This document shows, in pieces, positions 1-54,186 of a stretch of DNA of 64,000 nt. A model generated the notes under the pieces. That model did no database searches, was not told where the DNA came from, and was given only the letters and a program-made list of their open reading frames with translations. The first letter of the stretch is position 1. Each line of letters begins with the position of its first letter. Made by a program: the position numbers and the translations under genes. The DNA is taken from assembly GCF_054482595.1 (NCBI RefSeq), contig NZ_CM137008.1; one strand, given 5' to 3'.

Positions 1-1
1 A

Positions 2-12955: not shown

Positions 12956-12970
12956 TGTACTTCTCTCCAT

Positions 12971-14455: not shown

Positions 14456-14725
14456 TTATTGCCTGAGAATTCCCTCGCTGGCGAGATACGGGTTTAGCTG
14501 TTTTCCGGCATCAGGTTCAAAATTCCAGCAGCGCCAGCGTAGCTGGCCTTCAGCGTTGCGGATCACCAGCCGGAAATGCGTTCCCTGGTCATCTTCAATA
14601 AGCACATTAAGGTAAGCCGTTGTGACGGCAAGAGCCTGGTTGCGTGAGAAAGGGCCTTCGGGCAATAAACGTGATGTACAACCTGGCATATCTGTTGCTC
14701 CCTGTAAGTAAAAGGCCCCGGTCAT
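14456..14725 (-). CDS. Small hypothetical protein (89 aa) between antigen 43 and the DUF932 gene
   Basis: ORF with protein-like composition; not recognised. Confidence 0.4.
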
Positions 14726-14759
14726 GATGACCGGGGCCTGAAGGGGAGTGACCTGATTA

Positions 14760-17606: not shown

Positions 17607-17823
17607 CAGCTTTTCCTTACAGAGGGTGAATAAAAAAGCCGGTACCCACAAATGTGGATACCGGCAGGTACAAAACAGCATGGTCAGATAAAGTGGTTTT
17701 TCCCGGGCATAAATGCTTCCCTTCTCTCATCCGCCAGAGAAGTATCAGTCCGTTGTGTGCAATTCCGTTCTGCATGATGAAGAGATTCAGCTGCCTTTTC
17801 GCAGACCATTAACCACTATAAAC

Positions 17824-17859
17824 GATCGATAGTAACGATCGATACCTGTTTTATCGATC
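17824..17859. promoter_or_regulatory. Three clustered GATC sites upstream of the Ag43 gene (candidate Dam/OxyR phase-variation switch)
   Basis: GATC at 17824-17827, 17837-17840 and 17856-17859, about 220-250 bp upstream of the Ag43 start. Confidence 0.7.
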
Positions 17860-17977
17860 GTTTTATTCTATTAACGACAAGGCGGTCACGCAAGAGAAAC
17901 AGGAGGAGTATGAGGGGTTTGTGTCATGTTTTCAGTTGGTTAACGTAATGTTATCAGGCATTTCCCTGGCAGACTGT

Positions 17978-18850
17978 TCAGAAGAAAATCCAGTTCCATA
18001 CAGCGCGGGCAACAGAGACCACCGTGTCACGGACGGCACGCAGAACCGTGCGTGCAACAGAGGCAATACAGACGCTCTCCGCTGTGTCAAATATCCGGTC
18101 CACCGCACCGGTAAACTGTTCACGGGCCTGAGACCGGACAGATTCCGTGCGCAGCTCGTCCTGCAGGCGGGTCATCAGGGGACTGGCGGCATGGTCGGGA
18201 AGCGCTGTCATGAGCGCACTGACCAGCGTATCCAGTTCCCAGCCGGTGCGGGCCGATACGGCCACAACCGGATGTACGGGCCGGAACAGACGGAATACCG
18301 CCTCCGTTTTTTCGCGAATATTCTGTGCCTGTGCGGGAGAAGGCTGAATGCCGGCCATATCCCATTCATGGCAGGGCTCCGTTTTGTCGGCCTGCGTCAC
18401 CACAAACAGCACCTGCTGATGTCCCCGGTGCAGGATGTGTCGCCAGAAATACTCATCCACAGACAGGGCACGGTCATCGGCTTTAATCAGCCACAGTACC
18501 AGGTCAAGTTCAGGCAGAATGTCACGGTACAGGGCTTCATACTCTGCATCCCTGTCCCGGCTCTCGCCCACCCCGGGCAGGTCAGTGATAATCATACTGT
18601 GACCGTGGCCACTCAGACGGAAGCGCCGCACTTCCCGGGTGCCGGCGTGAACATCACTGACCGGGGTGACCTCCCCCTGAAACAGTGCATTACAGAGTGA
18701 GGATTTACCGGCCCCGCTTTTCCCCATAATGCCAATCACGGGTTCGTGACTGGTGAGTTTGCGCAGATGTTCCAGGATGTGACGGGAAAGTGAGTAAGGC
18801 AGGGAGGAGAGCGGTTTTTCAATTGCCTCAATGGCATCAGACGGATTCAT
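17978..18850 (-). CDS. yeeP: YeeP/YkfA/YfjP-family GTPase
   Basis: P-loop GKSGAGKSSL and DLPG motif; preferred ATG at 18850 (ORF track begins at 18913). Confidence 0.8.
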   Translation of the reverse strand: MNPSDAIEAIEKPLSSLPYSLSRHILEHLRKLTSHEPVIGIMGKSGAGKSSLCNALFQGEVTPVSDVHAGTREVRRFRLSGHGHSMIITDLPGVGESRDRDAEYEALYRDILPELDLVLWLIKADDRALSVDEYFWRHILHRGHQQVLFVVTQADKTEPCHEWDMAGIQPSPAQAQNIREKTEAVFRLFRPVHPVVAVSARTGWELDTLVSALMTALPDHAASPLMTRLQDELRTESVRSQAREQFTGAVDRIFDTAESVCIASVARTVLRAVRDTVVSVARAVWNWIFF

Positions 18851-19204
18851 ACATGTATTCCCGGTGAAAAAAGACAAAACCCCCGCACACCGGAAAGGTG
18901 GCGGGGGACTCACGGAGATAATATATGTCTGAAATTATTTGGAATGCAGGTATATGTGGCTGATACAGGTCTGAATCTAATCTGACAGTCCGCTCTGTGC
19001 CAGTAGCGGACGTTACTAACATAATTCAAGAAGATTAAAGTATTCCGGAAACGATTTTGTTAGAATGTTTTAATTATGTAACCAAGATACATTTTCTTAT
19101 GAGAGTATATGCGAGTTTTTATCTTATAATCAGAAGATTACAATCTGAACTTGTGATAGTAAAGTTACATAATTAATTATGTTAACATTGAAAAAATCAT
19201 AGGA

Positions 19205-19945
19205 ATGCTAGTGATAAAGCCTGAAATTACATCTCTATTCAAATACTGCCCTATCGGTAAGAATCAATTAAGTGCTCTTGCACAGCGGAAAATCTGGTAC
19301 TCAAAACCGGCAGGATTTAACGATCCTTTTGACACCCAATTTTATGTGAGAGGACAAAGGCATGTGTACGAACGGGAAATGGACTCTGAAAAATTATCAG
19401 CCATTTTTGGTGAAGATATGTCAGATGTAATGGTTTCCAAAAAACGTTCTCTTGATGAACTTTTGGACAGATTTAAAAGCGGTTTAGAAAAGTTAGGTAT
19501 TCTTTCACTAGCAAGCAGTAACAAAAATTTGCTGATGTGGTCGCATTATGCTTCTGAACATAAAGGTATGTGCTTAGAGTTTAAACGCATCGCCGGCACA
19601 GCCTTAGCAGATGATAAAATAACTAGGCCGATGAATTACAATGATAATTATCCATCGATACAGGCAAGTTCAATTTTAAATGAAGTCGATACATTATCTA
19701 ATAAAATTAGAATATTACATACAAAATCTAAACATTGGGAATACGAGCAGGAGTGGAGGCATGTAGTTGAGCAAGGTAATGAGTTACATCCTTGGCCCGC
19801 AGAATTAATTTCTGTTTATTTCGGCTGCAAGACAGATATGTCAGATATACATTTGGTAAGAAGTATAATTACGGACCCAAATGTTAATTACTATAAAGGA
19901 AATTTGTACAGTGATAAATTTGACATTTATTTTCAACCGATATAA
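19205..19945 (+). CDS. DUF2971-like protein (MWSHYA motif); function unknown
   Basis: 246-aa ORF in a visibly AT-rich segment; contains LLMWSHYASEHKG; family assignment from memory. Confidence 0.55.
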   Translation: MLVIKPEITSLFKYCPIGKNQLSALAQRKIWYSKPAGFNDPFDTQFYVRGQRHVYEREMDSEKLSAIFGEDMSDVMVSKKRSLDELLDRFKSGLEKLGILSLASSNKNLLMWSHYASEHKGMCLEFKRIAGTALADDKITRPMNYNDNYPSIQASSILNEVDTLSNKIRILHTKSKHWEYEQEWRHVVEQGNELHPWPAELISVYFGCKTDMSDIHLVRSIITDPNVNYYKGNLYSDKFDIYFQPI

Positions 19946-20090
19946 TTACGTAAAAACATATATACATTAACTAATGTTAAGTATTGTAAATACATCACGA
20001 TCGATTGAATGTCTGCTGTTCGCTCGCAGCGGACCTTCAGTTCATGTAACTTTTCCGCTTCGTACCAAAAGCGGACGTCAAAATGTATGT

Positions 20091-35859: not shown

Positions 35860-36585
35860 TCACGCCTGACGGTGCGATGAGTAATGTATTTCATACTCTT
35901 CCCGGTAGAGAGTTTCCCCCCAAAGAACCGGTTTATTCTCAGCAGTCAAATAAGTATGTTGTCGTACCAGAATTGGGCGGGAACGCTTTATTTTCAGCTT
36001 CTGGGCCGCATCCCGGCTGGGCAGCGCCACATGAACCTGGTTGGCAATTGTCTGTATCTCTATGCGAAGTGCCTGCTCAAAAATGTTTTGCAACGCATGG
36101 ACTTCCAGTTCCTGCTTATCTATTTGCAGGGCAAGAATTGAAGGCATATAACGAATTTCGAATGCAATTGGCTGCTGATTTATCAAGCGCAACCTTAACA
36201 GCCGATGGATGCTCTCTTTGCCTGATAACATCAGTTTTGTCCGTAAGAGTTCTGACGTTGAGACAGGTGCGAATTCGACGAGTTGATATTCGAGGTGTTT
36301 GTCGACACCAACCAGATCTTTTTCAAAAAATCCAAGAGATTGCGTATCCATTACGGTGATAATGGAAGGTTTTTTAACGAAGGTTCCACGTCCCCGAATG
36401 CGTTCAATCAATCCATCCGTAAGAAGACCCTGCATCGCATGGACCACTGTCGCTCGGGTGGTATTAAATTGGGCTGCAAGTTCGTTTTCAGAAGGTAAGC
36501 GTTCGCCTTGTTTATATACATTTTGTGCTATTCCATTGCGTAATGCTTCTCTGATCTGCAGGTAAATTGGCAAATTGCGATGCAT
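35860..36585 (-). CDS. GntR-family transcriptional regulator (HutC/UTRA-type)
   Basis: N-terminal winged HTH (LPSENELAAQFNTTRATVVHAMQGLLTDGLIERIRGRGTFV) and a C-terminal effector domain; divergent from the amidohydrolase gene. Confidence 0.85.
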   Translation of the reverse strand: MHRNLPIYLQIREALRNGIAQNVYKQGERLPSENELAAQFNTTRATVVHAMQGLLTDGLIERIRGRGTFVKKPSIITVMDTQSLGFFEKDLVGVDKHLEYQLVEFAPVSTSELLRTKLMLSGKESIHRLLRLRLINQQPIAFEIRYMPSILALQIDKQELEVHALQNIFEQALRIEIQTIANQVHVALPSRDAAQKLKIKRSRPILVRQHTYLTAENKPVLWGETLYREEYEIHYSSHRQA

Positions 36586-36613
36586 GTCAAATTAATCCTT
36601 CATTCTAAGTTGC

Positions 36614-36625
36614 ATAGTCAACTAT
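36614..36625. promoter_or_regulatory. Palindrome ATAGTCAACTAT in the divergent intergenic region; candidate GntR operator
   Basis: Perfect 5-2-5 inverted repeat containing a GT...AC core, between the regulator and the amidohydrolase gene. Confidence 0.3.
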
Positions 36626-36707
36626 ACAACTTCAAGGGTGACGGTATGTCATTTTAGCAGATATCACCTTCAGGTGTGGTCAGTTAAACATAAATGAGTT
36701 AGAGAAA

Positions 36708-37505
36708 ATGATTTTTGATACGCATGCGCATGTTTTTGTTCGAGGATTACCATTAGCGGAACATTGCCGATATGTTCCTGATTACGACGCCACACCGGAG
36801 AGTTATCTGACTCACTTGGATCGGTTTGGCATTGATGTTGGTATTCTGGTGCAACCCAGTTTTCTGGGGACGGATAACCACTATATGCTTGAGGCTCTTC
36901 GCCGTTACCCTACCCGGTTTCGTGGTGTAGCCGTTGTGGATCCAAACATTACGCGCTGTAAACTGGATGAAATGGCAAAATTAGGGGTCACTGGTATCCG
37001 CTTAAATTTAGTCGGCGTGGAAATTCCCGATCTTACGCAACCTGCATGGCAACACCTGTTAGAACATATTAAAGCCCTGGGATGGCATGTTGAGCTACAC
37101 AGAGCTGCGCGCGACTTGCCAGCGTTAATTACGGTATTACTTAAATCCGGTGTAAAGATTGTCGTTGACCATTTCGCGTTGCCTTCTCAGGAAGAGAAAC
37201 AAAACGATCCCGGATTTCAGTTTCTCCTTGAGCATGCAGAAACGCAGCAAATCTGGTTGAAACTTTCTGGCGCCTATCGCAATGGCAGTACTGAAACTCT
37301 CAACGATAACGTGGCACCGTTAATTCCTCTCCTGCTGCAGCATTTTGGACCTGCACATTTATTGTGGGGTAGCGACTGGCCACATACTCGATACGAAAAT
37401 GTCGTCAATTATCAAAAAACGTTCGAGTTACTGACGCAGCAAATACCTGATAAAGAAATGAGAAATAAAATTTTATCGGTTAGTGCAGAATCACTTATCG
37501 ATTAG
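36708..37505 (+). CDS. Amidohydrolase-2 family metal-dependent hydrolase (lactonase/decarboxylase-like)
   Basis: 265 aa with N-terminal HAH (MIFDTHAHVF) and C-terminal GSDWPH motifs typical of TIM-barrel amidohydrolases. Confidence 0.8.
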   Translation: MIFDTHAHVFVRGLPLAEHCRYVPDYDATPESYLTHLDRFGIDVGILVQPSFLGTDNHYMLEALRRYPTRFRGVAVVDPNITRCKLDEMAKLGVTGIRLNLVGVEIPDLTQPAWQHLLEHIKALGWHVELHRAARDLPALITVLLKSGVKIVVDHFALPSQEEKQNDPGFQFLLEHAETQQIWLKLSGAYRNGSTETLNDNVAPLIPLLLQHFGPAHLLWGSDWPHTRYENVVNYQKTFELLTQQIPDKEMRNKILSVSAESLID

Positions 37506-37536
37506 TTGGATTGAGAATATAGTCGAAAGGTATATC

Positions 37537-38886
37537 ATGAGCATATTTTATAAAAAAAGCTGGTACAAGTGGATTGTATTGGTGGTTTGTATTCTTGCCT
37601 ATTCATCAGGAAACCTGGTGCGCTGGAATTATACGGGAATATCGCAATATCTTATTGGTGAATGGCACATTGGAAAAGAAGAATTGGGGATCCTTGGTTC
37701 CGCATTCTTTTATGCCTACGCGATTGGGCAAAGTCCCTGGGGAACACTTACCGATATATTAGGCGGACGCAGAGTTATTTCTATCGGTATTTTAATTACC
37801 GCTATTATGTTCTCTCTCTTTGCTTTTGCGGGTGGCTACCATGCCGCTATCATCATTCGAGTATTAATGGGATTTGTTGGGGCGGCAACATTTGTGCCTT
37901 GTATGGCGGTACTTTCTCGCTGGTTTAGTAAAAAGGAGCGAGGTATGGTGCTGAATATCTTCTCTGGCACAGGTGGTGGATTAGGTGAGCTGTGGTCCTT
38001 TTTATTAATGCCATTGATTTCATTATTTATGGTAGGCGGCGCTACCGTGCTTGGCCTGAGCTCCTGGCGTGCATCTACGCTAATTATGGCGTTTGTCACA
38101 CTGGCGATCATGATCCTCTGTTTTGTCGGTATGCGCTCCGACCCGTCGGAATTAGGTCTTCCGTCCGTTGTTGAACAGGAGACGCGTAAGCAGGCGAAAG
38201 AACATAGCTATGCCAGGACACTGCTTAATGCGTTGCGCGATCCGTGGTTCTGGGTCATTACATTCGCCTGGCAAGGTTTTACCGTTTCTCTGCGTCTGCT
38301 ACCGGCCTGGTTGCCTATCTATGCGGCAGCTTACTACAAACAGACACAGGGATTATCCAGCGTTGAGGCGATGGTCGCAGGAGGTATGATAGCATCAGTG
38401 TATGTTGCCGGACGTATTTTGGGAACGCCTGTCTTTGGCAAATTATCTGACTTTTTGCTTGTCAGTTATAACGTACCAAGAACATTGATTATTGCTTGCT
38501 TCCATATCTTTATTACCGTCTCAATGTTTGCTCTTAGCCATCAAATGCCTTCCACATTTTTATTTGCAGTTCTGGTTTTTGTGATTGGTGCCGCGATAAA
38601 TATGTTCCCTCTGGTTAATGCAGTCGTCGCAGAAATCTGGCCGGTTAAAACGGGGGGCGCGTTAATGGGGATGGTGAATACGGTTGGGCAGTTAATAGGT
38701 GCCTCAGCGTTGGCCTACAGTGGTTTTATGGCAGAAAAATTTTCCATAGCCGGAGCAGGATACAGTTTTGAGTATCGTGGCATTTGGTATTTGGCAATGA
38801 TATTCAGTTCAATATCTATCCTGGCGTCTCTGTTGGCGATGCATCGCGAAAAACAAAGTATTCGGGAAAATGCCTTGAGTCATTAA
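37537..38886 (+). CDS. MFS transporter
   Basis: About 450 aa with roughly 12 hydrophobic segments; ATG at 37537 preceded by AAAGG. Confidence 0.85.
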   Translation: MSIFYKKSWYKWIVLVVCILAYSSGNLVRWNYTGISQYLIGEWHIGKEELGILGSAFFYAYAIGQSPWGTLTDILGGRRVISIGILITAIMFSLFAFAGGYHAAIIIRVLMGFVGAATFVPCMAVLSRWFSKKERGMVLNIFSGTGGGLGELWSFLLMPLISLFMVGGATVLGLSSWRASTLIMAFVTLAIMILCFVGMRSDPSELGLPSVVEQETRKQAKEHSYARTLLNALRDPWFWVITFAWQGFTVSLRLLPAWLPIYAAAYYKQTQGLSSVEAMVAGGMIASVYVAGRILGTPVFGKLSDFLLVSYNVPRTLIIACFHIFITVSMFALSHQMPSTFLFAVLVFVIGAAINMFPLVNAVVAEIWPVKTGGALMGMVNTVGQLIGASALAYSGFMAEKFSIAGAGYSFEYRGIWYLAMIFSSISILASLLAMHREKQSIRENALSH

Positions 38887-38891
38887 GCATA

Positions 38892-39947
38892 ATGTTTAAT
38901 CATATATTTACCCAGGTCAAACGTTCAGAAAATAAAAAAATGGCGGAAATCGCCCAATTCCTGCATGAAAATGATTTGAGCGTTGACACCACTGTCGAAG
39001 TATTTATTACCGTAACCCGCGATGAAAAGCTTATCGCGTGCGGCGGAATTGCCGGAAATATTATTAAATGCGTTGCTATCAGTGAATCCGTTCGCGGTGA
39101 AGGACTGGCGCTGACATTAGCCACCGAACTGATAAACCTCGCCTATGAGCGGCACAGCACGCATCTGTTTATTTATACCAAAACCGAATACGAGGCGCTG
39201 TTCCGCCAGTGCGGTTTTTCCACGCTGACCAGCGTCCCCGGCGTGATGGTGCTGATGGAAAACAGCGCCACGCGACTGAAACGCTATGCCGAATCGCTGA
39301 AAAAATTTCGTCATCCAGGGAACAAGATTGGCTGCATTGTGATGAACGCCAATCCCTTTACGAATGGTCACCGTTATCTGATTCAACAGGCTGCGGCACA
39401 GTGCGACTGGTTGCATCTGTTTTTAGTCAAAGAAGATTCTTCACGCTTCCCCTATGAAGACCGGCTGGATCTGGTGTTAAAAGGCACCGCCGATATTCCA
39501 CGCCTGACCGTGCATCGCGGCTCCGAATACATCATCTCCCGCGCTACGTTCCCTTGCTACTTCATTAAAGAACAGAGCGTCATTAACCATTGTTACACCG
39601 AAATTGATCTGAAGATTTTCCGTCAGTACCTCGCTCCCGCGCTGGGTGTAACTCACCGCTTTGTCGGTACTGAACCCTTTTGTCGCGTTACCGCCCAGTA
39701 CAACCAGGATATGCGCTACTGGCTGGAAACGCCGACTATCTCCGCACCGCCCATCGAACTGGTTGAAATTGAGCGGCTGTGTTACCAGGAGATGCCGATA
39801 TCCGCTTCCCGGGTACGCCAACTGCTGGCGAAAAACGATCTCACGGCTATCGCGCCGCTGGTCCCTGCAGTCACGCTGCATTATTTGCAGAACCTGCTTG
39901 AGCACTCCCGCCAGGACGCGGCAGCTCGTCAAAAGACCCCCGCATGA
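38892..39947 (+). CDS. citC: Citrate lyase ligase CitC
   Basis: Sequence (…VKRSENKKMAEIAQFLHENDLSVDTTVEVFITVTRDEKLIACGG...) matches E. coli CitC as recalled; start codon choice is uncertain. Confidence 0.88.
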   Translation: MFNHIFTQVKRSENKKMAEIAQFLHENDLSVDTTVEVFITVTRDEKLIACGGIAGNIIKCVAISESVRGEGLALTLATELINLAYERHSTHLFIYTKTEYEALFRQCGFSTLTSVPGVMVLMENSATRLKRYAESLKKFRHPGNKIGCIVMNANPFTNGHRYLIQQAAAQCDWLHLFLVKEDSSRFPYEDRLDLVLKGTADIPRLTVHRGSEYIISRATFPCYFIKEQSVINHCYTEIDLKIFRQYLAPALGVTHRFVGTEPFCRVTAQYNQDMRYWLETPTISAPPIELVEIERLCYQEMPISASRVRQLLAKNDLTAIAPLVPAVTLHYLQNLLEHSRQDAAARQKTPA

Positions 39948-39961
39948 GAAACAGGTGAAAA

Positions 39962-40258
39962 ATGAAAATAAACCAGCCCGCCGTTGCAGGCACCCTTGAG
40001 TCTGGGGATGTGATGATACGCATCGCCCCACTCGATACGCAGGATATCGACCTGCAAATCAACAGCAGCGTTGAGAAACAGTTTGGCGATGCCATTCGCA
40101 CCACCATTCTGGACGTTCTCGCCCGCTACAACGTGCGCGGCGTACAGCTGAATGTCGATGACAAAGGCGCACTGGACTGCATTTTACGTGCACGACTGGA
40201 AGCCCTGCTGGCACGCGCCAGCGGTATCCCGGCTCTGCCATGGGAGGATTGCCAATGA
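39962..40258 (+). CDS. citD: Citrate lyase acyl carrier protein CitD
   Basis: 98 aa ([42 protein letters not shown]...). Confidence 0.9.
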
Positions 40259-41163
40259 TTTCCGCTTCGCTGCAACAACGTAAAACTCGCACCCGCCGCA
40301 GTATGTTGTTTGTACCTGGTGCTAATGCCGCGATGGTCAGCAACTCCTTCATCTACCCGGCTGATGCCCTGATGTTTGACCTCGAAGACTCCGTTGCATT
40401 GCGTGAAAAAGACACCGCCCGCCGCATGGTTTACCACGCGCTGCAACATCCGCTTTATCGCGATATTGAAACCATTGTGCGTGTAAACGCGCTGGATTCC
40501 GAATGGGGTGTTAACGACCTGGAAGCCGTCGTTCGCGGTGGTGCGGACGTTGTGCGTCTGCCGAAAACCGATACCGCTCAGGATGTTCTGGATATCGAAA
40601 AAGAGATCCTGCGTATCGAAAAAGCCTGTGGTCGTGAACCCGGCAGTACCGGCCTGCTGGCGGCGATTGAATCTCCGCTGGGCATTACCCGCGCGGTAGA
40701 AATCGCTCACGCTTCCGAGCGTTTGATCGGTATCGCCCTCGGTGCAGAAGACTATGTGCGCAACCTGCGTACAGAACGCTCCCCGGAAGGAACTGAACTG
40801 CTGTTCGCTCGCTGCTCCATTTTGCAGGCCGCGCGTTCTGCGGGTATTCAGGCGTTCGATACCGTCTATTCCGACGCTAACAACGAAGCCGGATTCCTGC
40901 AAGAAGCCGCCCACATCAAACAGCTGGGCTTTGACGGCAAATCGCTGATCAACCCGCGTCAGATTGATCTGCTGCACAACCTCTACGCACCGACCCAGAA
41001 AGAAGTGGATCACGCCCGCCGCGTCGTAGAAGCCGCTGAAGCCGCCGCTCGCGAAGGCCTCGGCGTGGTTTCCCTGAACGGCAAGATGGTGGACGGTCCG
41101 GTTATCGATCGCGCCCGTCTGGTGCTCTCCCGCGCAGAACTTTCCGGCATCCGCGAAGAATAA
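40255..41163 (+). CDS. citE: Citrate lyase beta subunit CitE
   Basis: Start [34 protein letters not shown]...; overlaps citD stop (ATGA). Confidence 0.9.
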
Positions 41164-41173
41164 GGCAATCAAA

Positions 41174-42706
41174 ATGACGCAGAAAATTGAACAATCTCAA
41201 CGACAAGAACGGGTAGCGGCCTGGAATCGTCGCGCTGAATGCGATCTTGCCGCTTTCCAGAACTCGCCAAAGCAAACCTACCAGGCTGAAAAAGCGCGCG
41301 ATCGCAAACTGTGCGCCAACCTGGAAGAAGCGATTCGTCGCTCTGGTTTACAGGACGGCATGACGGCTTCCTTCCATCACGCTTTCCGTGGCGGTGACCT
41401 GATCGTCAATATGGTGATGGACGTCATCGCGAAGATGGGCTTTAAAAACCTGACTCTGGCCTCCAGCTCCCTGAGTGATTGCCATGCGCCGCTGGTAGAA
41501 CACATTCGCCAGGGCGTGGTTACCCGCATTTATACCTCTGGCCTGCGCGGTCCACTGGCGGAAGAAATCTCCCGTGGTCTGCTGGCGGAACCGGTGCAAA
41601 TCCACTCTCACGGCGGACGTGTGCATCTGGTACAGAGCGGCGAACTGAATATCGATGTGGCTTTCCTCGGCGTCCCGTCCTGTGATGAATTCGGTAATGC
41701 CAACGGCTACTCCGGTAAAGCCTGCTGCGGCTCCCTCGGCTATGCAATGGTTGATGCCGACAACGCAAAACAGGTCGTGATGCTTACCGAAGAACTGCTG
41801 CCTTATCCGCATAATCCGGCAAGCATTGAGCAAGATCAGGTTGATCTGATCGTCAAAGTTGATCGCGTTGGCGATGCTGCAAAAATCGGCGCTGGTGCTA
41901 CCCGTATGACCACTAACCCGCGCGAACTGCTTATTGCCCGTAGCGCTGCGGATGTGATTGTTAACTCTGGCTACTTCAAAGAAGGTTTCTCTATGCAGAC
42001 CGGCACCGGCGGCGCTTCGCTGGCGGTAACCCGTTTCCTGGAAGACAAAATGCGTAGCCGCGATATTCGCGCCGACTTCGCCCTCGGCGGTATTACCGCA
42101 ACGATGGTTGATCTGCACGAAAAAGGTCTGATCCGCAAACTGCTGGATGTGCAGAGCTTTGACAGCCATGCTGCGCAATCGCTGGCCCGTAACCCCAATC
42201 ACATCGAAATCAGCGCCAACCAGTACGCTAACTGGGGGTCGAAAGGCGCATCGGTTGATCGTCTCGACGTGGTGGTACTGAGTGCGCTGGAAATTGACAC
42301 CCAGTTCAACGTTAACGTGCTGACCGGCTCTGACGGCGTACTGCGTGGTGCTTCCGGTGGTCACTGCGATACCGCAATTGCCTCTGCGCTTTCCATCATC
42401 GTCGCGCCGCTGGTACGCGGTCGTATTCCGACGCTGGTGGATAACGTGCTGACCTGCATCACCCCGGGCTCCAGTGTCGATATTCTGGTCACAGACCACG
42501 GCATCGCTGTTAACCCGGCACGTCCGGAGCTGGCAGAACGTCTGCAGGAAGCGGGGATCAAAGTGGTTTCTATTGAGTGGCTGCGTGAACGTGCGCGTCT
42601 GCTGACCGGTGAACCACAGCCGATTGAATTCACCGACCGCGTCGTTGCCGTTGTGCGTTACCGCGATGGCTCGGTGATCGATGTTGTGCATCAGGTGAAG
42701 GAATAA
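41174..42706 (+). CDS. citF: Citrate lyase alpha subunit CitF
   Basis: 510-aa ORF in operon position after citE. Confidence 0.9.
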   Translation: MTQKIEQSQRQERVAAWNRRAECDLAAFQNSPKQTYQAEKARDRKLCANLEEAIRRSGLQDGMTASFHHAFRGGDLIVNMVMDVIAKMGFKNLTLASSSLSDCHAPLVEHIRQGVVTRIYTSGLRGPLAEEISRGLLAEPVQIHSHGGRVHLVQSGELNIDVAFLGVPSCDEFGNANGYSGKACCGSLGYAMVDADNAKQVVMLTEELLPYPHNPASIEQDQVDLIVKVDRVGDAAKIGAGATRMTTNPRELLIARSAADVIVNSGYFKEGFSMQTGTGGASLAVTRFLEDKMRSRDIRADFALGGITATMVDLHEKGLIRKLLDVQSFDSHAAQSLARNPNHIEISANQYANWGSKGASVDRLDVVVLSALEIDTQFNVNVLTGSDGVLRGASGGHCDTAIASALSIIVAPLVRGRIPTLVDNVLTCITPGSSVDILVTDHGIAVNPARPELAERLQEAGIKVVSIEWLRERARLLTGEPQPIEFTDRVVAVVRYRDGSVIDVVHQVKE

Positions 42707-42709
42707 GTC

Positions 42710-44123
<1,414 letters not shown>

Positions 44124-44148
44124 ATCATTAATATATCCGGAGTTAACT

Positions 44149-46746
44149 ATGTTAAAAGAATACCGTAAGCATGTAGCTGAGCGTGCCGCTGAGGGGATTG
44201 CGCCCAAACCCCTGGATGCAAACCAAATGGCCGCGCTTGTAGAGCTGCTGAAAAACCCGCCCGCGGGCGAAGAAGAATTCCTGTTAGATCTGTTAACCAA
44301 CCGTGTTCCCCCTGGCGTTGATGAAGCCGCCTATGTCAAAGCAGGCTTCCTGGCTGCTGTCGCCAAAGGTGAAGCCAAATCCCCACTGCTGACACCGGAA
44401 AAGGCCATCGAACTGCTGGGCACCATGCAGGGTGGTTACAACATTCATCCGCTGATCGACGCGCTGGATGATGCCAAACTGGCACCGATCGCTGCCAAAG
44501 CACTTTCTCACACGCTGCTGATGTTCGATAACTTCTATGACGTAGAAGAGAAAGCCAAAGCAGGCAACGAATATGCGAAGCAGGTAATGCAGTCCTGGGC
44601 GGATGCCGAATGGTTCCTGAATCGCCCGGCGCTGGCTGAAAAACTGACCGTTACCGTCTTCAAAGTCACTGGCGAAACCAACACCGATGACCTCTCTCCG
44701 GCACCGGATGCGTGGTCACGCCCGGATATCCCACTGCACGCGCTGGCGATGCTGAAAAACGCCCGTGAAGGCATCGAGCCAGATCAGCCTGGTGTTGTTG
44801 GCCCGATCAAACAGATTGAAGCTCTGCAACAGAAAGGTTTCCCGCTGGCGTACGTCGGTGACGTTGTGGGTACGGGGTCATCGCGTAAATCCGCCACGAA
44901 CTCCGTTCTGTGGTTTATGGGCGATGATATTCCACATGTGCCGAACAAACGCGGCGGTGGTTTGTGCCTCGGCGGTAAAATTGCACCCATCTTCTTTAAC
45001 ACGATGGAAGATGCGGGTGCACTGCCAATCGAAGTCGACGTCTCTAACCTGAACATGGGCGACGTAATTGACGTTTACCCGTACAAAGGTGAAGTGCGTA
45101 ACCACGAAACCGGCGAACTGCTGGCAACCTTCGAACTGAAAACCGACGTGCTGATTGATGAAGTGCGTGCTGGCGGCCGTATTCCGCTGATTATCGGGCG
45201 TGGCCTGACCACCAAAGCGCGTGAAGCACTTGGCCTGCCGCACAGTGATGTGTTCCGTCAGGCGAAAGATGTCGCTGAGAGCGATCGCGGCTTCTCGCTG
45301 GCGCAGAAAATGGTAGGTCGTGCCTGCGGTGTGAAAGGCATTCGTCCGGGCGCGTACTGCGAACCGAAAATGACTTCTGTAGGTTCACAGGACACCACCG
45401 GCCCGATGACCCGTGATGAACTGAAAGACCTGGCGTGCCTGGGCTTCTCGGCTGACCTGGTGATGCAGTCTTTCTGCCACACCGCGGCGTATCCGAAACC
45501 AGTTGACGTGAATACGCACCACACGCTGCCGGACTTCATTATGAACCGTGGCGGTGTGTCGCTGCGTCCGGGTGACGGCGTAATCCACTCCTGGCTGAAC
45601 CGTATGCTGCTGCCGGATACCGTCGGTACCGGTGGTGATTCCCATACCCGTTTCCCGATCGGCATTTCTTTCCCGGCAGGCTCCGGTCTGGTGGCATTTG
45701 CTGCTGCAACTGGCGTCATGCCGCTGGATATGCCGGAATCCGTTCTGGTGCGCTTCAAAGGCAAAATGCAGCCGGGCATCACCCTGCGCGATTTGGTACA
45801 CGCTATTCCGCTGTATGCGATCAAACAAGGTCTGCTGACCGTTGAGAAGAAAGGCAAGAAAAACATCTTCTCTGGCCGCATCCTGGAAATTGAAGGTCTG
45901 CCGGATCTGAAAGTTGAGCAGGCCTTTGAGCTGACCGATGCGTCCGCCGAGCGTTCTGCTGCCGGTTGTACCATCAAGCTGAACAAAGAACCGATCATCG
46001 AATACCTGAACTCCAACATCGTCCTGCTGAAGTGGATGATCGCGGAAGGTTACGGCGATCATCGTACCCTGGAACGCCGTATTCAGGGCATGGAAAAATG
46101 GCTGGCGAATCCTGAGCTGCTGGAAGCCGATGCAGATGCGGAATACGCGGCAGTGATCGACATCGATCTGGCGGATATCAAAGAGCCAATCCTCTGTGCT
46201 CCGAACGACCCGGATGACGCGCGTCCGCTGTCTGCGGTACAGGGCGAGAAGATCGACGAAGTGTTTATCGGTTCCTGCATGACCAACATCGGTCACTTCC
46301 GTGCTGCGGGTAAACTGCTGGATGCGCATAAAGGCCAGCTGCCGACCCGCCTGTGGGTGGCACCGCCAACCCGTATGGACGCCGCGCAGTTGACCGAAGA
46401 AGGCTACTACAGCGTCTTCGGTAAGAGTGGTGCGCGTATCGAGATCCCTGGCTGTTCCCTGTGTATGGGTAACCAGGCGCGTGTAGCAGACGGTGCGACG
46501 GTGGTTTCCACCTCTACCCGTAACTTTCCGAACCGTTTGGGTACTGGCGCGAATGTCTTCCTGGCTTCTGCGGAACTGGCCGCTGTTGCGGCGCTGATTG
46601 GCAAACTGCCGACGCCGGAAGAGTACCAGACCTACGTGGCGCAGGTAGATAAAACCGCCGTTGATACTTACCGTTATCTGAACTTCAACCAGCTTTCTCA
46701 GTATACCGAGAAAGCGGATAGGGTGATTTTTCCTAGTGTGGTTTAA
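44149..46746 (+). CDS. acnB: Aconitate hydratase B / 2-methylisocitrate dehydratase AcnB
   Basis: 865 aa; N-terminus [47 protein letters not shown]... matches AcnB throughout; RBS CCGGAG upstream. Confidence 0.93.
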
Positions 46747-46815
46747 GAAGTCAGTGTGCTGCGTATAAAAAGCTAATACCAGGCTGCCTGTCATATCGAT
46801 TTCATGCAGGATAAG

Positions 46816-46846
46816 TAGAACTCCGTCTAATCTAGACGGAGTTCTA
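46816..46846. repeat. Palindrome TAGAACTCCGTCTA-ATC-TAGACGGAGTTCTA downstream of acnB; related copy at 58007-58040
   Basis: Perfect 14-bp inverted repeat with 3-nt spacer; a near-copy abuts the start of IS66 orf1 at 58007-58040. Confidence 0.45.
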
Positions 46847-46989
46847 TTGTATTGATGGCTTTGGTAGAAGCGTAAGTGTACAGCGAGAGCTGTATTGACA
46901 GGAATGCGTTATTCAGTTGGCAGTGTATTGCGCAGGGGGAGCCGTTCGCTGACGTAAGCGGCTCGTCAGAACCGTATTGATATTTACTG

Positions 46990-47531
46990 AGCGGTCAGTT
47001 CAACTTTCCAGGGCAACAGATCACGTACCCGGTTTGCCGGCCAGTCCTGGATATGTTCAATGACGTAACGCAGCCATTTTCTGGCTCCTCATTGTTCAGA
47101 CGGCATGTGCCGATCAGCGAGTACAACACCGCCGCATGTTCGCCACCGTTGTCGGAACCCACGAAGAGCCAGTTTTTCCGGCCTACGGCCACTCCCCGTA
47201 AGGCGTTCTCTGCGATGTTGTTGTCGATTTCCACCCAGCCATTGCTGCAGTACACATTCAGGCCATCCCACTGTTTCAGCAGGTATGCGAACGCTTTTGC
47301 CGTATCCGAGTGACGCGACAGTGTTTTCATCTGAGTCTGTATCCAGTCATACAGTGACTGCATCAGTGGCGCAGCTCTGGCTTTTCTTGCTGCCAGACGC
47401 TGTTCTGCTGAACATCCCCGGACTTCTGCCTCGGTGGCATACAGTTCACCGATACGCTGCAGGGCTTCCGTGGTGATGTCGGTTGGCACTCTTACATGCA
47501 CATCGTGGATTCTTCTCCGGGAATGAGCCAT
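46990..47531 (-). pseudogene. IS66-family transposase TnpC, C-terminal fragment with frameshift near the 3-prime end
   Basis: [50 protein letters not shown]... matches the TnpC C-terminal half; the true C-terminus is in another frame. Confidence 0.7.
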
Positions 47532-47997
47532 ACACGCGGCTTCCGTTACTCTGCCGGATTCGTATAACGCCTAAGCATCGGCCTGAAGCACACCACAAAG
47601 ACTGGCCTTCAGGCTGTACACGCAGCCAAAGCGTTTATCGTTGAACACCACATTTTTCTGGCTGATGTCCCATTCTTCACGCAGCATAGCAATCAGTTGT
47701 GGTGTGCAGGTAAGCAGCAAGCGAAAAGGCAGTTCAAAACTGGTGACGTAATCCACATTCAGCAGGGCAATACGCAGCAGTTCTTCTGGCCCTGCCTCTG
47801 TCTGCCGACACTCCTCCAGAACATCCTGCTACTGCCGACGAAGATATGGAGATTCATTCAATTCTGTAAAACCGTATTTATCCGCCAGATAGTCAATTCG
47901 TGTACGCATACTGAAAAGAATTCCGTATAAAAATTCAGCAGACAAAACTTTATCAGCCCATAAGAATCAACGGAAGAGCCAGTAACGTACCAGATTA

Positions 47998-48510
47998 TCA
48001 CCTGGCTATTGTTGCCATAACGGGTAACATAAGGGACTGAACAGTTGTCTTTAGCACAACGAACTGATCTAATGTACCTGAACGGTCAACCTGAAAACAG
48101 CTTTCCAACCGACATTGTCCGCCAGCGTTTATCCCCGACCAGGTCTGTTGCAGTAAATCCACCACTTGCGAACATTCTTCATCAACTGTGGCACTGACCC
48201 GCAGATGGCAAATGCTCGCCTGGCTGAGCAGCAACAGGCATCGTATTGTTGCTTCTCCATGTTGTTCCAGCAACCAGCGTAATACCACCGGCGGTGCTGG
48301 ACTGGCAGTGTGATTACGCTCAGTAATATGTTCTTGCACCTGTCGGTAAAAGGCAGTACAGAATGCATGAATCTGTTGCCCGTTGATGTTTCCTTCTGCC
48401 GAATAGAGCGTGAAGTGGACTGCCAGCAGACGCGGCCAGTGGTCCACCGCCTGCTGAACAAAACGCCAGATATCTCCCGGCTCTGAAAGTAACGCTTCGG
48501 TTATTTGCAC
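47998..48510 (-). CDS. Hypothetical protein, third Rep-like (Gp2-family-like) paralog
   Basis: 170-aa ORF with pattern GNINGQQIHAFCTAFYRQVQEH...IRCLLLLSQAS resembling the ORFs at 29263 and 31511. Confidence 0.4.
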   Translation of the reverse strand: MQITEALLSEPGDIWRFVQQAVDHWPRLLAVHFTLYSAEGNINGQQIHAFCTAFYRQVQEHITERNHTASPAPPVVLRWLLEQHGEATIRCLLLLSQASICHLRVSATVDEECSQVVDLLQQTWSGINAGGQCRLESCFQVDRSGTLDQFVVLKTTVQSLMLPVMATIAR

Positions 48511-48659
48511 GGAATACTACTCCTTCAGACTCTGTTAAGTTTTGTTTGTTAAACCGGTGCAGACCTGCAGGAAAGCACGCCAGCACCGGCACTGTACGAT
48601 ATAAACATCCGGTACCGGGGATACGAATGGAATGACGAATACGCCAGAAAAGGGATAAC

Positions 48660-49827
48660 AACCTTCCTCATAATGGTGAAATCATTCGCTATCGGTTACA
48701 CGGTACGCGATGTCGCCAAAGGCAGCTGGATCGACGAATCCACGGTCACGCTACCGAAAGCGCCGCCGCTTAACACCCTGCCTCGGGCGACCAAAGTGCC
48801 GGAGCCACTGCCGCCGCAGGAAGATTACACCTTTGAAGGTTACCGCAACGCCGACGGCAGCGTGGGCACCAAAAACCTGTTGGGTATTACCACCAGCGTG
48901 CACTACATGGCAGACGTTGAGGACTACGTGGTTAAAATTATCGAACGCGACCTGCTGCCGAAATACCCGAGCATCGACGGCGTGGTCGACTTGAACCACC
49001 TCTACGGCTGTGGCGTAGCGATTAATGTACCGGCCGCCGTGGTGCCAATTCGCACCATCCATAATATTGCGCTGAACCCAAACTTCGGTGGCGAAGTGAT
49101 GGTGGTGGGCATGCAGTGCGGTGGCAGCGACGCGTTCTCCGGCGTTACCACTAACCCCGCTGTCGGCTACGACTCTGACCTGCTGGTGCGCTGCGGCGCA
49201 ACGGTGATGTTCTCCGAAGTCACTGAAGTACGCGACGCCATTCATCTGTTAACGCCACGCGCCATCAATGAAGAAGTGGGCAGGCGTCTGCTCGAAGAGA
49301 TGGCCTGATACGATAACTATCCCGATATGGGCAAAACCGACCGCAGCGCCAACCCTTCGCCGGGCAACAAAAAGGGCGGCCTCGCCAACGTGGTAAAGAA
49401 AGCACTCGGCTCCATTGCTAAATCGGGTAAAACCGCAATTGTTGAAGTGCTGTCGCCCGGTCAACACCCGACTAAACGCGGATTAATTTACGCCGCGACG
49501 CCAGCCAGCGATTTTGTCTGTGGCACGCAACAGGTGGCTTCGGGTATCACCGTGCAAGTGTTTACGACCGGCCGTGGTACGACGTACGGCCTGATGGCGG
49601 TACCCGTCATTAAAATGGCGACCCGCACCGGGCTGGCGAACCACTGGTTTGATTTAATGGATATTAACGCAGGCACTATCGCTACCGGCGAAGAGACCAT
49701 TGAAGAGGTGGGCTGGAAGTTGTTCCACTTTATTCTCGACGTCGCCAGCGGGAAGAAGAAAACTTTCTCGGATCAATGGGGATTGCATAACCAGCTGGCA
49801 GTGTTTAACCCGGCACCGGTGGCCTGA
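48660..49827 (+). pseudogene. garD: Galactarate dehydratase GarD-like gene, decayed (5-prime truncated, shift near 48680, in-frame TGA at 49306)
   Basis: Two same-frame ORFs (48673-49308 and 49327-49827) separated by TGA where GarD has Trp; homology starts mid-SAF domain; about 60 aa fewer than expected. Confidence 0.7.
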
Positions 49828-49889
49828 TATTCTCTTCATACATTAAGTTGTATTATGCCCGATAACGCTTGTTTATCGGGCATAGTGAA

Positions 49890-50714
49890 TCACAGCGAAG
49901 ACGCGAGCTCCCCGACCAGAATCACTTCAACCCCAGCCTTTCGCAAGCCTTCCAGACTATCCGCAGGAATGCCTTCATCAACAATGATCATGTCGATACG
50001 TTTAGTATCAATGATCTTATGTAAACTGGAACGATTGAACTTACTGGAATCGGTGACCACGATGATCCGTTCCGCAACTTCGCACATCCGGCGGTTTAAA
50101 CGGGCTTCATCTTCATTATGCGTGCTGACGCCGCGCTCCAGATCGATCGCATCTACACCAAGAAACAGCATATCGAAGTGGTAATTTTGCAGCGATTGCT
50201 CAGCCTGATCGCCGTAAAAAGATTGCGACTGACGGCGCAAATGCCCGCCGGTCATCAGCAGCTCAACGCCTTCCGCTTCCAGCAACGCATTAGCCACGTT
50301 CATACCGTTGGTCATCGCAATTACGTCAGTGTGCTTGCGCATCAGACGAGCAATCTCAAAAGTGGTGGTCCCGGAATCGAGGAGCACCCGATGACCTGGC
50401 TGAATCAACTCAACGGCAGCTTTCGCAACGCTGCGTTTCATCGCGGTGTTCAGTGCGCTTTTGTCTTCCACTGATGGCTCGACTGACGGCGTCGTGCTAT
50501 CGCAGATCAACGCGCCACCATAGGCACGCACAGCGATCCTCTGCTTTTCCAGAAACGCCAGATCGTTGCGGATCGTCACAGTAGATACGCCATACAATGC
50601 CGACAGATCGTTAACCTGCACACTCCCTTGCTGTCGCAGACGCTGAATGATCTGTTCTCGTCGCTCGCTGGTGCCTGTCACTCGCTTCTCACCTGAAGCG
50701 TCGGTATTACTCAT
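49890..50714 (-). CDS. agaR: DeoR-family repressor AgaR
   Basis: [57 protein letters not shown]...; DeoR HTH plus sugar-binding domain. Confidence 0.9.
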
Positions 50715-50962
50715 AGTAAGTCCTTTCGTAAAACTTTCGTTTCATTTCGTTTTGCCTATTAACGCCTTTCTATTAAGCAAATGCAAGCCCACCTTGCCCA
50801 TTGGCGCAAGCTACTCTCGTTTCACTGACTTTCATTATGTTTCTTTTGTGAATCGGATCAGAAAACCATTATCTTTCGTTTTATTTTTATCTCACCATGA
50901 CGCAGTATGAACTGAAACAAAACGAAAGATTAATATCGCAGCAATCTGAACTGGAGAGGAAA

Positions 50963-51301
50963 GTGAAACATCTGACAGAAATGGTGAGGCAGTACAAAGC
51001 GGGCAAAACAAATGGAATTTATGCCGTTTGTTTTGCCCGCTTTGTGCTGCATGGGGCGAGCGATGTGCCGGATGAGTATGTTCGTCGCACCATTGGGCCA
51101 GGCGTCTGCAAAGTCAACGTTGCAACCGAGTTGAAGATCGCCTTCTCTGACGCCATCAAAGCTTGGTTTGCTGAAAATCAGCAGAGCAACGATCCGTGCT
51201 TTTACATGCGGGTTGGCATGGACGCCATGAAAGAGGTGGTCAGAAGCAAAATCGCCGTCTGCGGCTCGGCAAATCGATTACGGCTACCGGCGGAGGCCTG
51301 A
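50963..51301 (+). pseudogene. In-frame deletion-fusion of kbaZ 5-prime end to kbaY 3-prime end (aga operon remnant)
   Basis: GTG 50963 with GGAGAGGA RBS; KbaZ-like N-terminus ([22 protein letters not shown]) switches at about 51030 to a class II aldolase C-terminus ([22 protein letters not shown]...). Confidence 0.6.
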
Positions 51302-51414
51302 TCCAACAGCGTATTACCTCAATATTTCAAAATAATTATAAGTCTCACAAATATGAAGGCGCGTCCTTAAACCGGGTAGCGCCTTCCATTATCCTAAAAT
51401 TCGAGGAGCCCTAT

Positions 51415-52986
51415 ATGACACAAAAAAAATCTTTTAAATCAAAATTATGGGAGTTTTTACAAAGTCTGGGAAAAACCTTTATGTTCCCGGTTTCGCTTCT
51501 TGCCTTTATGGGATTGCTGCTGGGTATCGGTAGTTCAGTCACCAGCCCTTCCACCATTACTAGTTTTCCCTTTCTGGGCGGCGAATTTACCCAGTTGACC
51601 TTTGGCTTTATCGCTATGGTCGGTGGCTTTGCTTTTACCTATCTGCCGCTGATGTTTGCCATGGCGATCCCCATGGGGCTTGCCAAGCGCAACAAAGCGG
51701 TCGCTGCCTTTGCCGGGTTCGTTGGCTACATGCTGATGAACATGAGCATTAATTATTACCTGACGGCTACCCACCAGCTTGCCGACCCCGCCACCATGAA
51801 ACAGGTAGGACAATCGATCGTGCTGGGCATTCAAACCCTGGAGATGGGGGTATTAGGTGGCATTGTGGTTGGGGTTATCACCTATTTTCTGCATGACCGT
51901 TTTCAGGACACGGTTCTGCATGACGCCTTCGCCTTCTTTAGCGGCATTCGTTTCGTGCCGATTATTACCGCGCTCACCCTGTCGCTGGTGGGTCTGTTCA
52001 TTCCCATGCTGTGGGAATACGTCGCGCTGGGCATCGCGGGTATTGGGCATATCATCCAGAGCACCAGCGTTTTCGGCCCCTTCCTCTACGGCGTAGGCGT
52101 GCTGCTGCTTAAACCTTTTGGTCTGCACCACATCCTGCTGGCGATGGTGCGTTTTACCCCAGCAGGCGGCATTGAAATGGTAAATGGCCATGAGGTCGCC
52201 GGGGCGCTGAATATCTTCTACGCCGAGCTCAAAGCCGGCCTGCCGTTTAGCCCGCACGTTACCGCGTTTCTGTCACAAGGGTTTATGCCGACCTTTATCT
52301 TCGGTTTACCCGCCGTGGCTTACGCCATCTACCGCACCGCGCGTCCGGAAAATCGGCCGGTCATTAAGGGGTTGCTGCTTTCCGGCGTGCTGGTTTCCGT
52401 CGTCACCGGTATTTCAGAGCCGATTGAGTTCCTGTTCCTGTTTATCGCCCCCGCGCTTTACGCCTTCCATATCGTCATGTCTGGCCTGGCGCTGATGGTA
52501 ATGGCCCTGCTGGGAGTGACCATCGGCAATACCGACGGCGGCATTCTGGATCTGCTGATTTTCGGCGTGATGCAGGGAATGTCGACCAAATGGTATCTGC
52601 TGTTCCCGGTTGGTATTGCCTGGTTTGCCATCTACTTCTTTGTCTTCCGCTGGTACATCCTCAAACACAACATCAAAACGCCGGGCCGCGAGGTGGATGT
52701 TCAGGGGGCACAGCAAGCCGTCGAGGCGAACACCCGCGCGCGCGGAAAATCAAAATACGATCACGAGCTTATCCTGCGTGCGCTCGGAGGTAAAGAGAAC
52801 ATTGAGTCGCTTGATAACTGTATTACCCGCTTGCGTCTGGTGGTGAAAGATATGGGCCTTATCGATCAGCAGGCGCTGAAAGCGGCAGGCGCGTTGTCAG
52901 TGGTGGTGCTTGATGCGCATAGCGTGCAGGTGATCATCGGACCGCAGGTACAGAGCGTCAAAACCGGCATTGAAGCCTTAATTTAA
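51415..52986 (+). CDS. PTS EIICB component, glucose/maltose (MalX-like) family
   Basis: ATG 51415 with GAGGAG RBS; EIIC membrane domain plus C-terminal EIIB (LGGKENIESLDNCITRLRLVVKD) with phospho-Cys motif. Confidence 0.85.
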   Translation: MTQKKSFKSKLWEFLQSLGKTFMFPVSLLAFMGLLLGIGSSVTSPSTITSFPFLGGEFTQLTFGFIAMVGGFAFTYLPLMFAMAIPMGLAKRNKAVAAFAGFVGYMLMNMSINYYLTATHQLADPATMKQVGQSIVLGIQTLEMGVLGGIVVGVITYFLHDRFQDTVLHDAFAFFSGIRFVPIITALTLSLVGLFIPMLWEYVALGIAGIGHIIQSTSVFGPFLYGVGVLLLKPFGLHHILLAMVRFTPAGGIEMVNGHEVAGALNIFYAELKAGLPFSPHVTAFLSQGFMPTFIFGLPAVAYAIYRTARPENRPVIKGLLLSGVLVSVVTGISEPIEFLFLFIAPALYAFHIVMSGLALMVMALLGVTIGNTDGGILDLLIFGVMQGMSTKWYLLFPVGIAWFAIYFFVFRWYILKHNIKTPGREVDVQGAQQAVEANTRARGKSKYDHELILRALGGKENIESLDNCITRLRLVVKDMGLIDQQALKAAGALSVVVLDAHSVQVIIGPQVQSVKTGIEALI

Positions 52987-52997
52987 CAGGAGGAGTG

Positions 52998-54173
52998 ATG
53001 TTTGATTTCGACAAAATCATTGAGCGTCAAAGTGATAAGTGCCGTAAATGGGACCATACCTTTGTTTGCTCGCGTTTCGGTGACGTCCCGGAGTCCTTTA
53101 TCCCCCTGTGGATAGCCGATATGGATTTCACCTCACCACCTGCGGTGATTGACGGTTTCCGGCGCATCGTGGAGCACGGCACCTTTGGTTATACCTGGTG
53201 CTTTGACGAATTCTACGACGCGGTCATTGCCTTCCAGCGCAAACGTCATCAGGTTGAGGTGGAAAAGTCGTGGATCACGTTGACCTACGGCACCGTATCC
53301 ACGCTGCACTACACGGTTCAGGCATTCTGCAAACCGGGTGACAGCGTGATGATGAACACGCCGGTCTACGATCCTTTTGCGATGGCGGCACAGCGCCAGG
53401 GCGTGCAGGTACTGGCTAACCCGCTGCGCGTGGAGGAAAACCGCTATCAGCTTGATTTTAATCTGATAGAAGAACAGCTCAAAACCCACCGTCCAACGCT
53501 GTGGTTCTTCTGCTCGCCACATAACCCGTCCGGCAGGATCTGGCGCGAGGAAGAAATACGCCAGGTGTCCGATCTCTGTCAACGCTACGGCACGATTCTG
53601 GTGGTCGATGAGGTTCACGCTGAACACATTCTGGATGGCAAATTCGTCAGTTGTCTCACCTCTGGCTGTGCCGCCCAGGACAACCTGATCGTGCTCACAT
53701 CGCCCAACAAAGCGTTCAATTTGGGCGGGCTGAAAACCTCCTACTCCATGATTCCAGACGACTCGCTGCGCCAGCGCTTCCGCCAGCAGCTCGAGAAGAA
53801 CTCCATTACCTCGCCCAATTTGTTCGGGGTATGGGGAATCATTCTGGCCTATCAACACGGTCTGCCCTGGCTCGACGCGCTGAACGGTTATCTGCAAGGC
53901 AACGCCCGGTATCTGGCGGATGCCCTCCAGACCCACTTCCCGGCGTGGAAGATGATGAACCCGGAATCGTCGTATCTGGCGTGGATAGACGTAAGCGCGG
54001 ATGAGCGTAGCGCAACGCAGCTAACCCAACATTTCGCACGGCAGGCAGGCGTGGTCATAGAAGACGGCAGCCACTATGTACAAAACGGTGAAAACTACCT
54101 GCGGATTAATTTTGGCACCCAGCGCTACTGGCTGGAGCAGTCCATTAACCGAATGCTGAAAAATGACAAATAA
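52998..54173 (+). CDS. MalY/PatB-like PLP-dependent C-S lyase (class I/II aminotransferase fold)
   Basis: About 390 aa with SPNKAFNLGGLK (PLP-lysine region); immediately downstream of the PTS gene. Confidence 0.85.
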   Translation: MFDFDKIIERQSDKCRKWDHTFVCSRFGDVPESFIPLWIADMDFTSPPAVIDGFRRIVEHGTFGYTWCFDEFYDAVIAFQRKRHQVEVEKSWITLTYGTVSTLHYTVQAFCKPGDSVMMNTPVYDPFAMAAQRQGVQVLANPLRVEENRYQLDFNLIEEQLKTHRPTLWFFCSPHNPSGRIWREEEIRQVSDLCQRYGTILVVDEVHAEHILDGKFVSCLTSGCAAQDNLIVLTSPNKAFNLGGLKTSYSMIPDDSLRQRFRQQLEKNSITSPNLFGVWGIILAYQHGLPWLDALNGYLQGNARYLADALQTHFPAWKMMNPESSYLAWIDVSADERSATQLTQHFARQAGVVIEDGSHYVQNGENYLRINFGTQRYWLEQSINRMLKNDK

Positions 54174-54186
54174 GGATCTTACCCCG

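Follow-up and report, generated by a model that had tools for sequence, protein, structure and literature searches.

A garD pseudogene in a tRNA-Phe-associated Escherichia coli island, the probable relic of a second, horizontally acquired copy

We found that the garD-like sequence at positions 48660-49827 of the window (the whole 64-kb stretch of DNA that was analysed, from contig NZ_CM137008.1) is, with high confidence, what remains of a second garD that was acquired horizontally, no longer functions and travels as a passenger in an E. coli island associated with tRNA-Phe (pheV/pheU). A first-pass annotation had described a garD-like gene with several independent lesions and ascribed them to relaxed selection in a host-restricted lineage. 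The lesions are confirmed, four of them being mapped by nucleotide alignment to K-12 garD, and so is the relaxed selection, in the form of drift without coding constraint, whereas host restriction gives way as its cause to redundancy and hitch-hiking with the island.

Lesions and mosaic composition of the garD pseudogene

The four disabling lesions were placed using K-12 garD together with less-decayed island copies of other strains. In an identical genome, RefSeq/PGAP labels exactly 48660-49827 as a pseudogene, 'frameshifted; internal stop; incomplete; missing N-terminus'. The features of this segment, hereafter garD', are the following.

48660-49827, plus strand: garD' pseudogene, 5'-truncated, frameshifted, internally deleted and with a nonsense codon; the span is that of the RefSeq pseudogene annotation
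48671-48689, plus strand: first 19 nt of garD homology (K-12 nt 186-204), with the truncation junction at 48670/48671 and the 11-nt deletion directly after 48689
48691-49385, plus strand: foreign (xenologous) part, about 80-82% nucleotide identity to E. coli garD, with differences mostly at third codon positions
49100-49109, plus strand: the 10-bp repeat TGGTGGTGGG, here in its one surviving copy, at the site of the 219-nt deletion; strains P4 and O18 retain both repeats and the 219 nt between them
49306-49308, plus strand: nonsense codon TGA where K-12 has TGG (Trp351 of GarD, K-12 nt 1051-1053), common to all island copies aligned
49386-49827, plus strand: E. coli-like 3' third, 94-97% identity to resident E. 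coli garD alleles; breakpoint at about 49330-49400

Homology to K-12 garD begins at window position 48671, corresponding to K-12 nt 186 (codon 63), and thus within the SAF domain (Pfam; residues 22-92 of K-12 GarD), as the first-pass annotation had noticed; unrelated DNA stands where the promoter, the start codon and the rest of the first 62 codons would be. The small shift it had suspected near 48680 is real and corresponds to an 11-nt deletion (K-12 nt 205-215) at 48689/48690, between two TAT triplets, which shifts the frame, and the TGA at 49306 does occupy a position where tryptophan is expected. An internal loss had also been recognised correctly, but its size, put at about 60 residues, comes to 73 codons by alignment: 219 nt are deleted in frame at 49099/49100 (K-12 nt 626-844, residues ~209-281). 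Undeleted island copies carry the 10-bp direct repeat on both sides of the segment missing from the window, and the single repeat surviving at the deletion is, judged by this comparison, a signature of slippage or illegitimate recombination.

Two ORF fragments with ATG starts remain on the plus strand, at 48673-49308 (211 aa) and 49327-49827 (166 aa). Each of them matches the Pfam families GD_AH_second and GD_AH_C, and in NCBIfam the sole match of either is the galactarate dehydratase equivalog TIGR03248 (E = 6e-99 and 1e-90) and not uxaA, with scores of 331.8 and 304.7 bits against a curated cut-off of 730.85. Through the truncation of SAF, the loss of residues ~209-281, the frameshift and the TGA, garD' falls short of a full-length GarD, half of the second domain being lost along with the SAF domain.

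Upon comparing garD' with resident alleles, we observe two parts of different relatedness. The foreign part has the same ~80-82% identity to garD of K-12, of S88 (phylogroup B2) and of the resident locus of strain GTEN_97, with a dS of 1.09-1.22 and a dN/dS of 0.03-0.09 relative to E. coli garD, and the fixed differences between the island copies and K-12 fall 31:21:150 by codon position (chi-square p = 6e-34). On this divergence pattern, rather than on a named source, rests its status as a foreign ortholog: its substitutions are distributed as in an ortholog that was still functional, and under strong purifying selection, while it diverged in a different lineage of enterobacteria, and the 5' two-thirds of garD' was never E. 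coli garD. Among GTDB species representatives the best identity to the foreign part was 82-87% over the 80 loci listed, the best of these matches being Pseudescherichia, Phytobacter and 'Escherichia sp. ESNIH1'. An intact progenitor was not found in a set of 5.8 billion proteins, where the best full-coverage matches reached 84-88% identity and those above 88% were exclusively fragments of the garD' relic itself.

The 3' segment shows only 82-84% identity to genera outside Escherichia, so the switch in identity is more than a conserved region; among the matches listed, two other Escherichia loci reach ~88-90%. The E. coli-like stretch runs on beyond garD', through agaR (96-98.5%) and through the agaR-kbaZ intergenic region with the first 70 nt of kbaZ (96-98%). 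The simplest reading is that a foreign gar/aga segment was carried into the island and that homologous recombination with the E. coli resident locus would later have replaced part of it; the E. coli-like patch could instead reflect a donor that was already mosaic.

Island setting and neighbouring genes

The left end of the window, positions 1-8909, is core chromosome that many E. coli match at 100% identity, and it is at 8909 that the core identity stops. Its genes gspD to gspM (1-8739), the only ones of the core in the window, are all uninterrupted ORFs. The boundary and the surroundings of garD' contain the following features.

8889-8910, minus strand: 22-nt copy of the tRNA-Phe 3' end (TTCGATTCCGAGTCCGGCACCA), the att repeat and left island boundary, directly after gspM
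46995-48510, minus strand: left flank of garD', comprising an IS66-family transposase remnant (46995-47531), a broken DNA-binding gene and a 170-aa hypothetical gene (47998-48510); unrelated to the gar locus
49828-49889, no strand assigned: 62-nt spacer separating the stops of garD' and agaR; it contains a hairpin with an 11-bp stem (49855-49883) and replaces K-12 prlF-yhaV
49890-50714, minus strand: intact second agaR, 274 aa, 266/269 identical to K-12 AgaR
50715-51032, plus strand: agaR-kbaZ intergenic region (promoter/operator) and first 70 nt of kbaZ, 97-98% identity to K-12
50989-51050, no strand assigned: palindrome with a perfect 27-bp stem at the kbaZ'/kbaY' deletion junction
51044-51301, plus strand: 3' fragment of foreign kbaY, fused in frame to kbaZ', 77% identity to K-12 kbaY nt 616-849

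Rightward from the att repeat, the island DNA comprises a CP4-type module, Ag43, ISEc38, a second citCDEFXG with acnB, IS66 remnants, the hypothetical gene and garD'. On the 3' side of garD' lie the agaR copy, the kbaZ'-'kbaY fusion, a malX-like PTS gene, a MalY/PatB-type lyase gene and a gene for a 637-aa protein, past which the remainder of the window holds further IS66 debris, an amidohydrolase gene, dcuC and a LysR gene. The genes garPLRK are absent from the window, and with the hypothetical gene and IS66 debris upstream, garD' does not stand in its native context. No intact tRNA gene is present within the 64-kb window, so an intact pheV must lie past its right end, and the far end of the island is likewise outside the window. 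The tRNA-Phe repeat at the boundary and the variable presence of the relic, found in ~9% of genomes, identify a tRNA-associated island. In strain Santai the same garD' block is located on the pheU side, adjoining cadC, with the gsp/pheV locus of that strain elsewhere, whereas the block of the window is at gsp/pheV; the block can therefore move from one of the two tRNA-Phe sites to the other.

Several further observations concern the modules of this island. Window positions 9000-20000, the CP4-type/Ag43 part, have no match above ~95% identity among 5,426 complete E. coli genomes, and the island of this genome is a combination of modules unrepresented in that set, while 1-8909 and 44000-64000 do have 100% matches. 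Positions 35860-46746 carry the second acnB (865 aa) and the second citCDEFXG citrate-lyase set along with an MFS transporter, an amidohydrolase and a GntR regulator, and this region looks like an accessory cluster for organic-acid utilisation. The 170-aa hypothetical gene is only 85% identical between the window-type and the P4-type island, with neighbours on both sides at 97-98%, and it is frameshifted in P4. Neither this gene nor the 637-aa protein, which RefSeq names either 'enterotoxin' or 'alpha-galactosidase', had a match in Pfam, NCBIfam or PHROGs, and PDB sequences likewise gave no match to the 637-aa protein.

In strain S88, the resident locus has a spacer related to that at 49828-49889 and likewise short. 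The palindrome at 50989-51050 (DNA fold -30.7 kcal/mol, z = -8.1) is situated exactly where kbaZ nt 70 joins kbaY nt 616 and resembles the scar that foldback or templated repair would leave at a deletion. Rfam, scanned over 46500-52000, returned no family and only two sub-threshold miRNA-like matches, which are due to this palindrome. Across 49890-56076, agaR and the conserved control region precede the kbaZ'-'kbaY ORF, the malX-type PTS IIBC gene, the PatB/MalY-type C-S lyase gene and the 637-aa gene, an operon that may be AgaR-controlled.

Distribution, order of decay and competing readings

Next, we examined how widely the relic occurs and what accompanies it. A 1.4-kb query (48500-49900) was matched with at least 80% coverage in 498 of the 5,426 complete E. 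coli genomes, about one in eleven, and all of the best 25 of these 498 genomes with the relic contain two matching places. The 3' end of garD is found at full length in 5,357 of the 5,426, so a resident garD is nearly universal. An intact resident gene is shown by proxy for the genome of the window: strain GTEN_97, which is 100% identical to window 44000-64000, has a resident garD of 1,572 nt and 523 aa with no pseudogene flag, together with garPLRK, prlF-yhaV, agaR and a complete aga operon. Isolates with a relic identical to that of the window come from humans, ducks, chickens, turkeys, mink, dogs, a gull and seawater.

Two observations on chromosome structure stand beside these data. The resident garD-agaR of GTEN_97 (garD at 630622-632193) and its island garD'-agaR (~875,000) are inverted relative to each other and about 245 kb apart, sharing ~1.7 kb at 95-98% identity, through which a large inversion could potentially arise. 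In strain Santai, a large inversion of the chromosome was seen in the region at 3.33-3.72 Mb; it has one end at a multi-resistance island that was inserted into the ETT2 region and borders the ileX tRNA, and the genes of that island include TEM-1, armA, OXA-1, mph(A), fosA3 and mer genes.

Five island copies were aligned, from the window, ATCC 43896, elppa5, P4 and O18. The truncation junction, the TGA and the mosaic are common to all five, whereas the 11-nt and 219-nt deletions occur only in the window, ATCC 43896 and elppa5. P4 and O18 keep the deleted segments and carry lesions of their own, a GAG->TAG change and a 1-nt deletion, and ATCC 43896 has an additional 2-nt insertion. By relic type, about 191 genomes hold the undeleted and roughly 310 the deleted form. 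The P4-type island retains more aga debris (kbaZ 276 nt, agaS 345 nt, kbaY 313 nt) and has lost most of malX, with agaR broken; taken together, the island copies suggest an ancestral cargo of garD'-agaR-kbaZ...agaS-kbaY-malX-malY-637-aa gene. Strain HH45 was considered as a more ancestral copy and discarded, its assembly being error-rich, with nearly every gene frameshifted.

The island lineages of garD' are 2.6% diverged, and the 40 sites variable among the five copies are spread 13:15:12 by codon position (p = 0.84). As far as these alignments tell, garD' has been drifting neutrally, under no coding constraint, since before the island lineages split, and all of its lesions predate the strain of the window. 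A consensus scan for promoters and terminators gave nothing above the shuffled expectation, with no promoter-like site on the plus strand upstream of either garD' ORF, and garD' is probably unexpressed, although its ORFs of 211 and 166 aa are still open. We found no support for residual garD' function in the promoter scan, in Rfam or in the lineages themselves, which differ in their frame-breaking lesions across the same region.

From these comparisons we infer the order of the early events and the recombination mechanism. A chromosome stretch of another enterobacterium, garD - agaR - kbaZ ... agaS - kbaY - malX-like PTS - MalY-like lyase - 637-aa protein, would have entered the island, after which garD would have been cut off from its promoter and first 62 codons where it now joins unrelated DNA of the island, and would have gained the TGG->TGA change. 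A patch from the 3' third of garD via agaR into kbaZ would then have been replaced by E. coli-type sequence, most simply by the resident gar/aga locus recombining homologously with the island. Once the island lineages had separated, that of the window would have lost the 11 nt, the 219 nt (by slippage between the 10-bp repeats) and kbaZ...kbaY, with the other lineage collecting different lesions. The relic would be selectively invisible because the intact resident garD supplies galactarate dehydratase activity, and it would persist only through linkage to the island.

The reading that the genome's own garD is decaying in a host-restricted lineage, by genome reduction of the Shigella type, draws on the several independent lesions in one gene and on the IS remnants and other pseudogenes nearby, and we consider it very improbable. 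Instead of an inactivated resident single-copy ortholog we find a relic that is in an island and not at garP-garD, that has the 5' part of a foreign ortholog, and that is matched by an intact resident garD in GTEN_97. The lesions did not arise within a restricted lineage either, as the same ones recur in about 300-500 genomes from varied hosts and environments, with an identical relic in ~500 genomes from many hosts, and are older than the strain; the pseudogenes nearby are island and IS debris, next to intact core gsp genes. The host-restricted lineage of the first-pass annotation thus falls away in favour of a second copy in an island, and neither is the feature a different, intact paralog, the outcome set against its reading there: it is a decayed xenologous extra copy. 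That the lesions are sequencing or assembly artefacts, with false frameshifts and stops, has next to no probability; some assemblies of the region are indeed error-rich, as in strain HH45, but stretches of 1.4-20 kb of the window sequence recur at 100% identity in no fewer than six or seven complete, independent genomes, and the lesions follow a consistent phylogenetic pattern.

Two readings would leave the relic, or its surroundings, some use. The 166-aa C-terminal GarD fragment (49327-49827) or the 211-aa ORF might still serve as a protein or regulator, given that both ORFs are open with an ATG and the relic is kept in ~500 genomes; against this stand the even spread of substitutions over codon positions, the frameshifts, stops and deletions by which the lineages differ, the lack of a promoter-like plus-strand site upstream of either ORF in the consensus scan and the missing domains, and we regard such a use as highly unlikely. 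A dead garD' might, on the other hand, be retained through attachment to a useful cassette, in which the island agaR and the agaR-kbaZ promoter/operator control the malX-like PTS gene, the MalY-like lyase gene and the 637-aa gene, a proposal that accounts for retention and not for function. It is consistent with the near-identity of the intact island AgaR to that of K-12, with the 98% identity of the intergenic region to K-12 and with downstream genes that are intact and co-oriented; yet the other island lineage (191 genomes) keeps garD' though its agaR is frameshifted or deleted and its malX cut to 80 nt, and we hold this explanation to be possible but unlikely. N-acetylgalactosamine is a mucin sugar, and the more specific proposal that garD'-agaR-PagaZ is a captured regulatory cassette, placing the malX-like PTS, the MalY-like C-S lyase and the 637-aa protein under N-acetylgalactosamine control with garD' dead, appears quite doubtful; were it true, the E. 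coli-like patch would record island-chromosome recombination that keeps the cassette compatible with the host regulator.

Comparison with known systems

Overall, garD' is an ordinary gene remnant of a tRNA island and is already known, since RefSeq annotates it as a pseudogene; what is added here, in a small way, is the foreign/host mosaic and the order of the lesions. A limited search of the literature on garD, pheV and malX found no description of the island gar/aga mosaic. A multi-lesion metabolic pseudogene in a raw window can pass for genome reduction when it is a redundant foreign passenger with the working gene elsewhere, and relics like garD' should not be counted in pseudogene surveys and annotation as loss of garD function. 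The evolutionary interest is minor: the lesions can be ordered on the island phylogeny, and the mosaic points to past recombination between the island and the core gar/aga locus.

With E. coli K-12 garD (b3128; UxaA/GarD family, TIGR03248; SAF, GD_AH_second and GD_AH_C), garD' shares homology from K-12 nt 186 to the stop and a convergent agaR on the 3' side. Unlike K-12 garD, it is without start codon, promoter, 62 5' codons and 73 internal codons and has a frameshift and a stop; its nucleotide identity is ~80% over two-thirds of its length, and it lies in an island without prlF-yhaV and not beside garPLRK, from which K-12 garD is divergent. The pseudogenes of host-restricted Escherichia/Shigella likewise combine multiple disabling lesions with neutral drift in a metabolic gene, but they affect a single resident gene within a lineage, whereas garD' is an extra foreign copy beside an intact resident and is common to hundreds of free-living, commensal and pathogenic strains from many hosts. 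The closest likeness is to the pheV/pheU islands and PAIs of E. coli, which also have a tRNA-Phe 3'-end repeat at the boundary, mosaic cargo, gene remnants and the same block at pheV or pheU; the CP4-type module, Ag43, the IS66/ISL3 elements, the malX-like PTS gene and the many truncated genes of the window island match this class. Set against it, the window island shows nothing unusual, and what is specific is its cargo, with a decayed foreign gar/aga segment that appears to have been partly overwritten by E. coli sequence.
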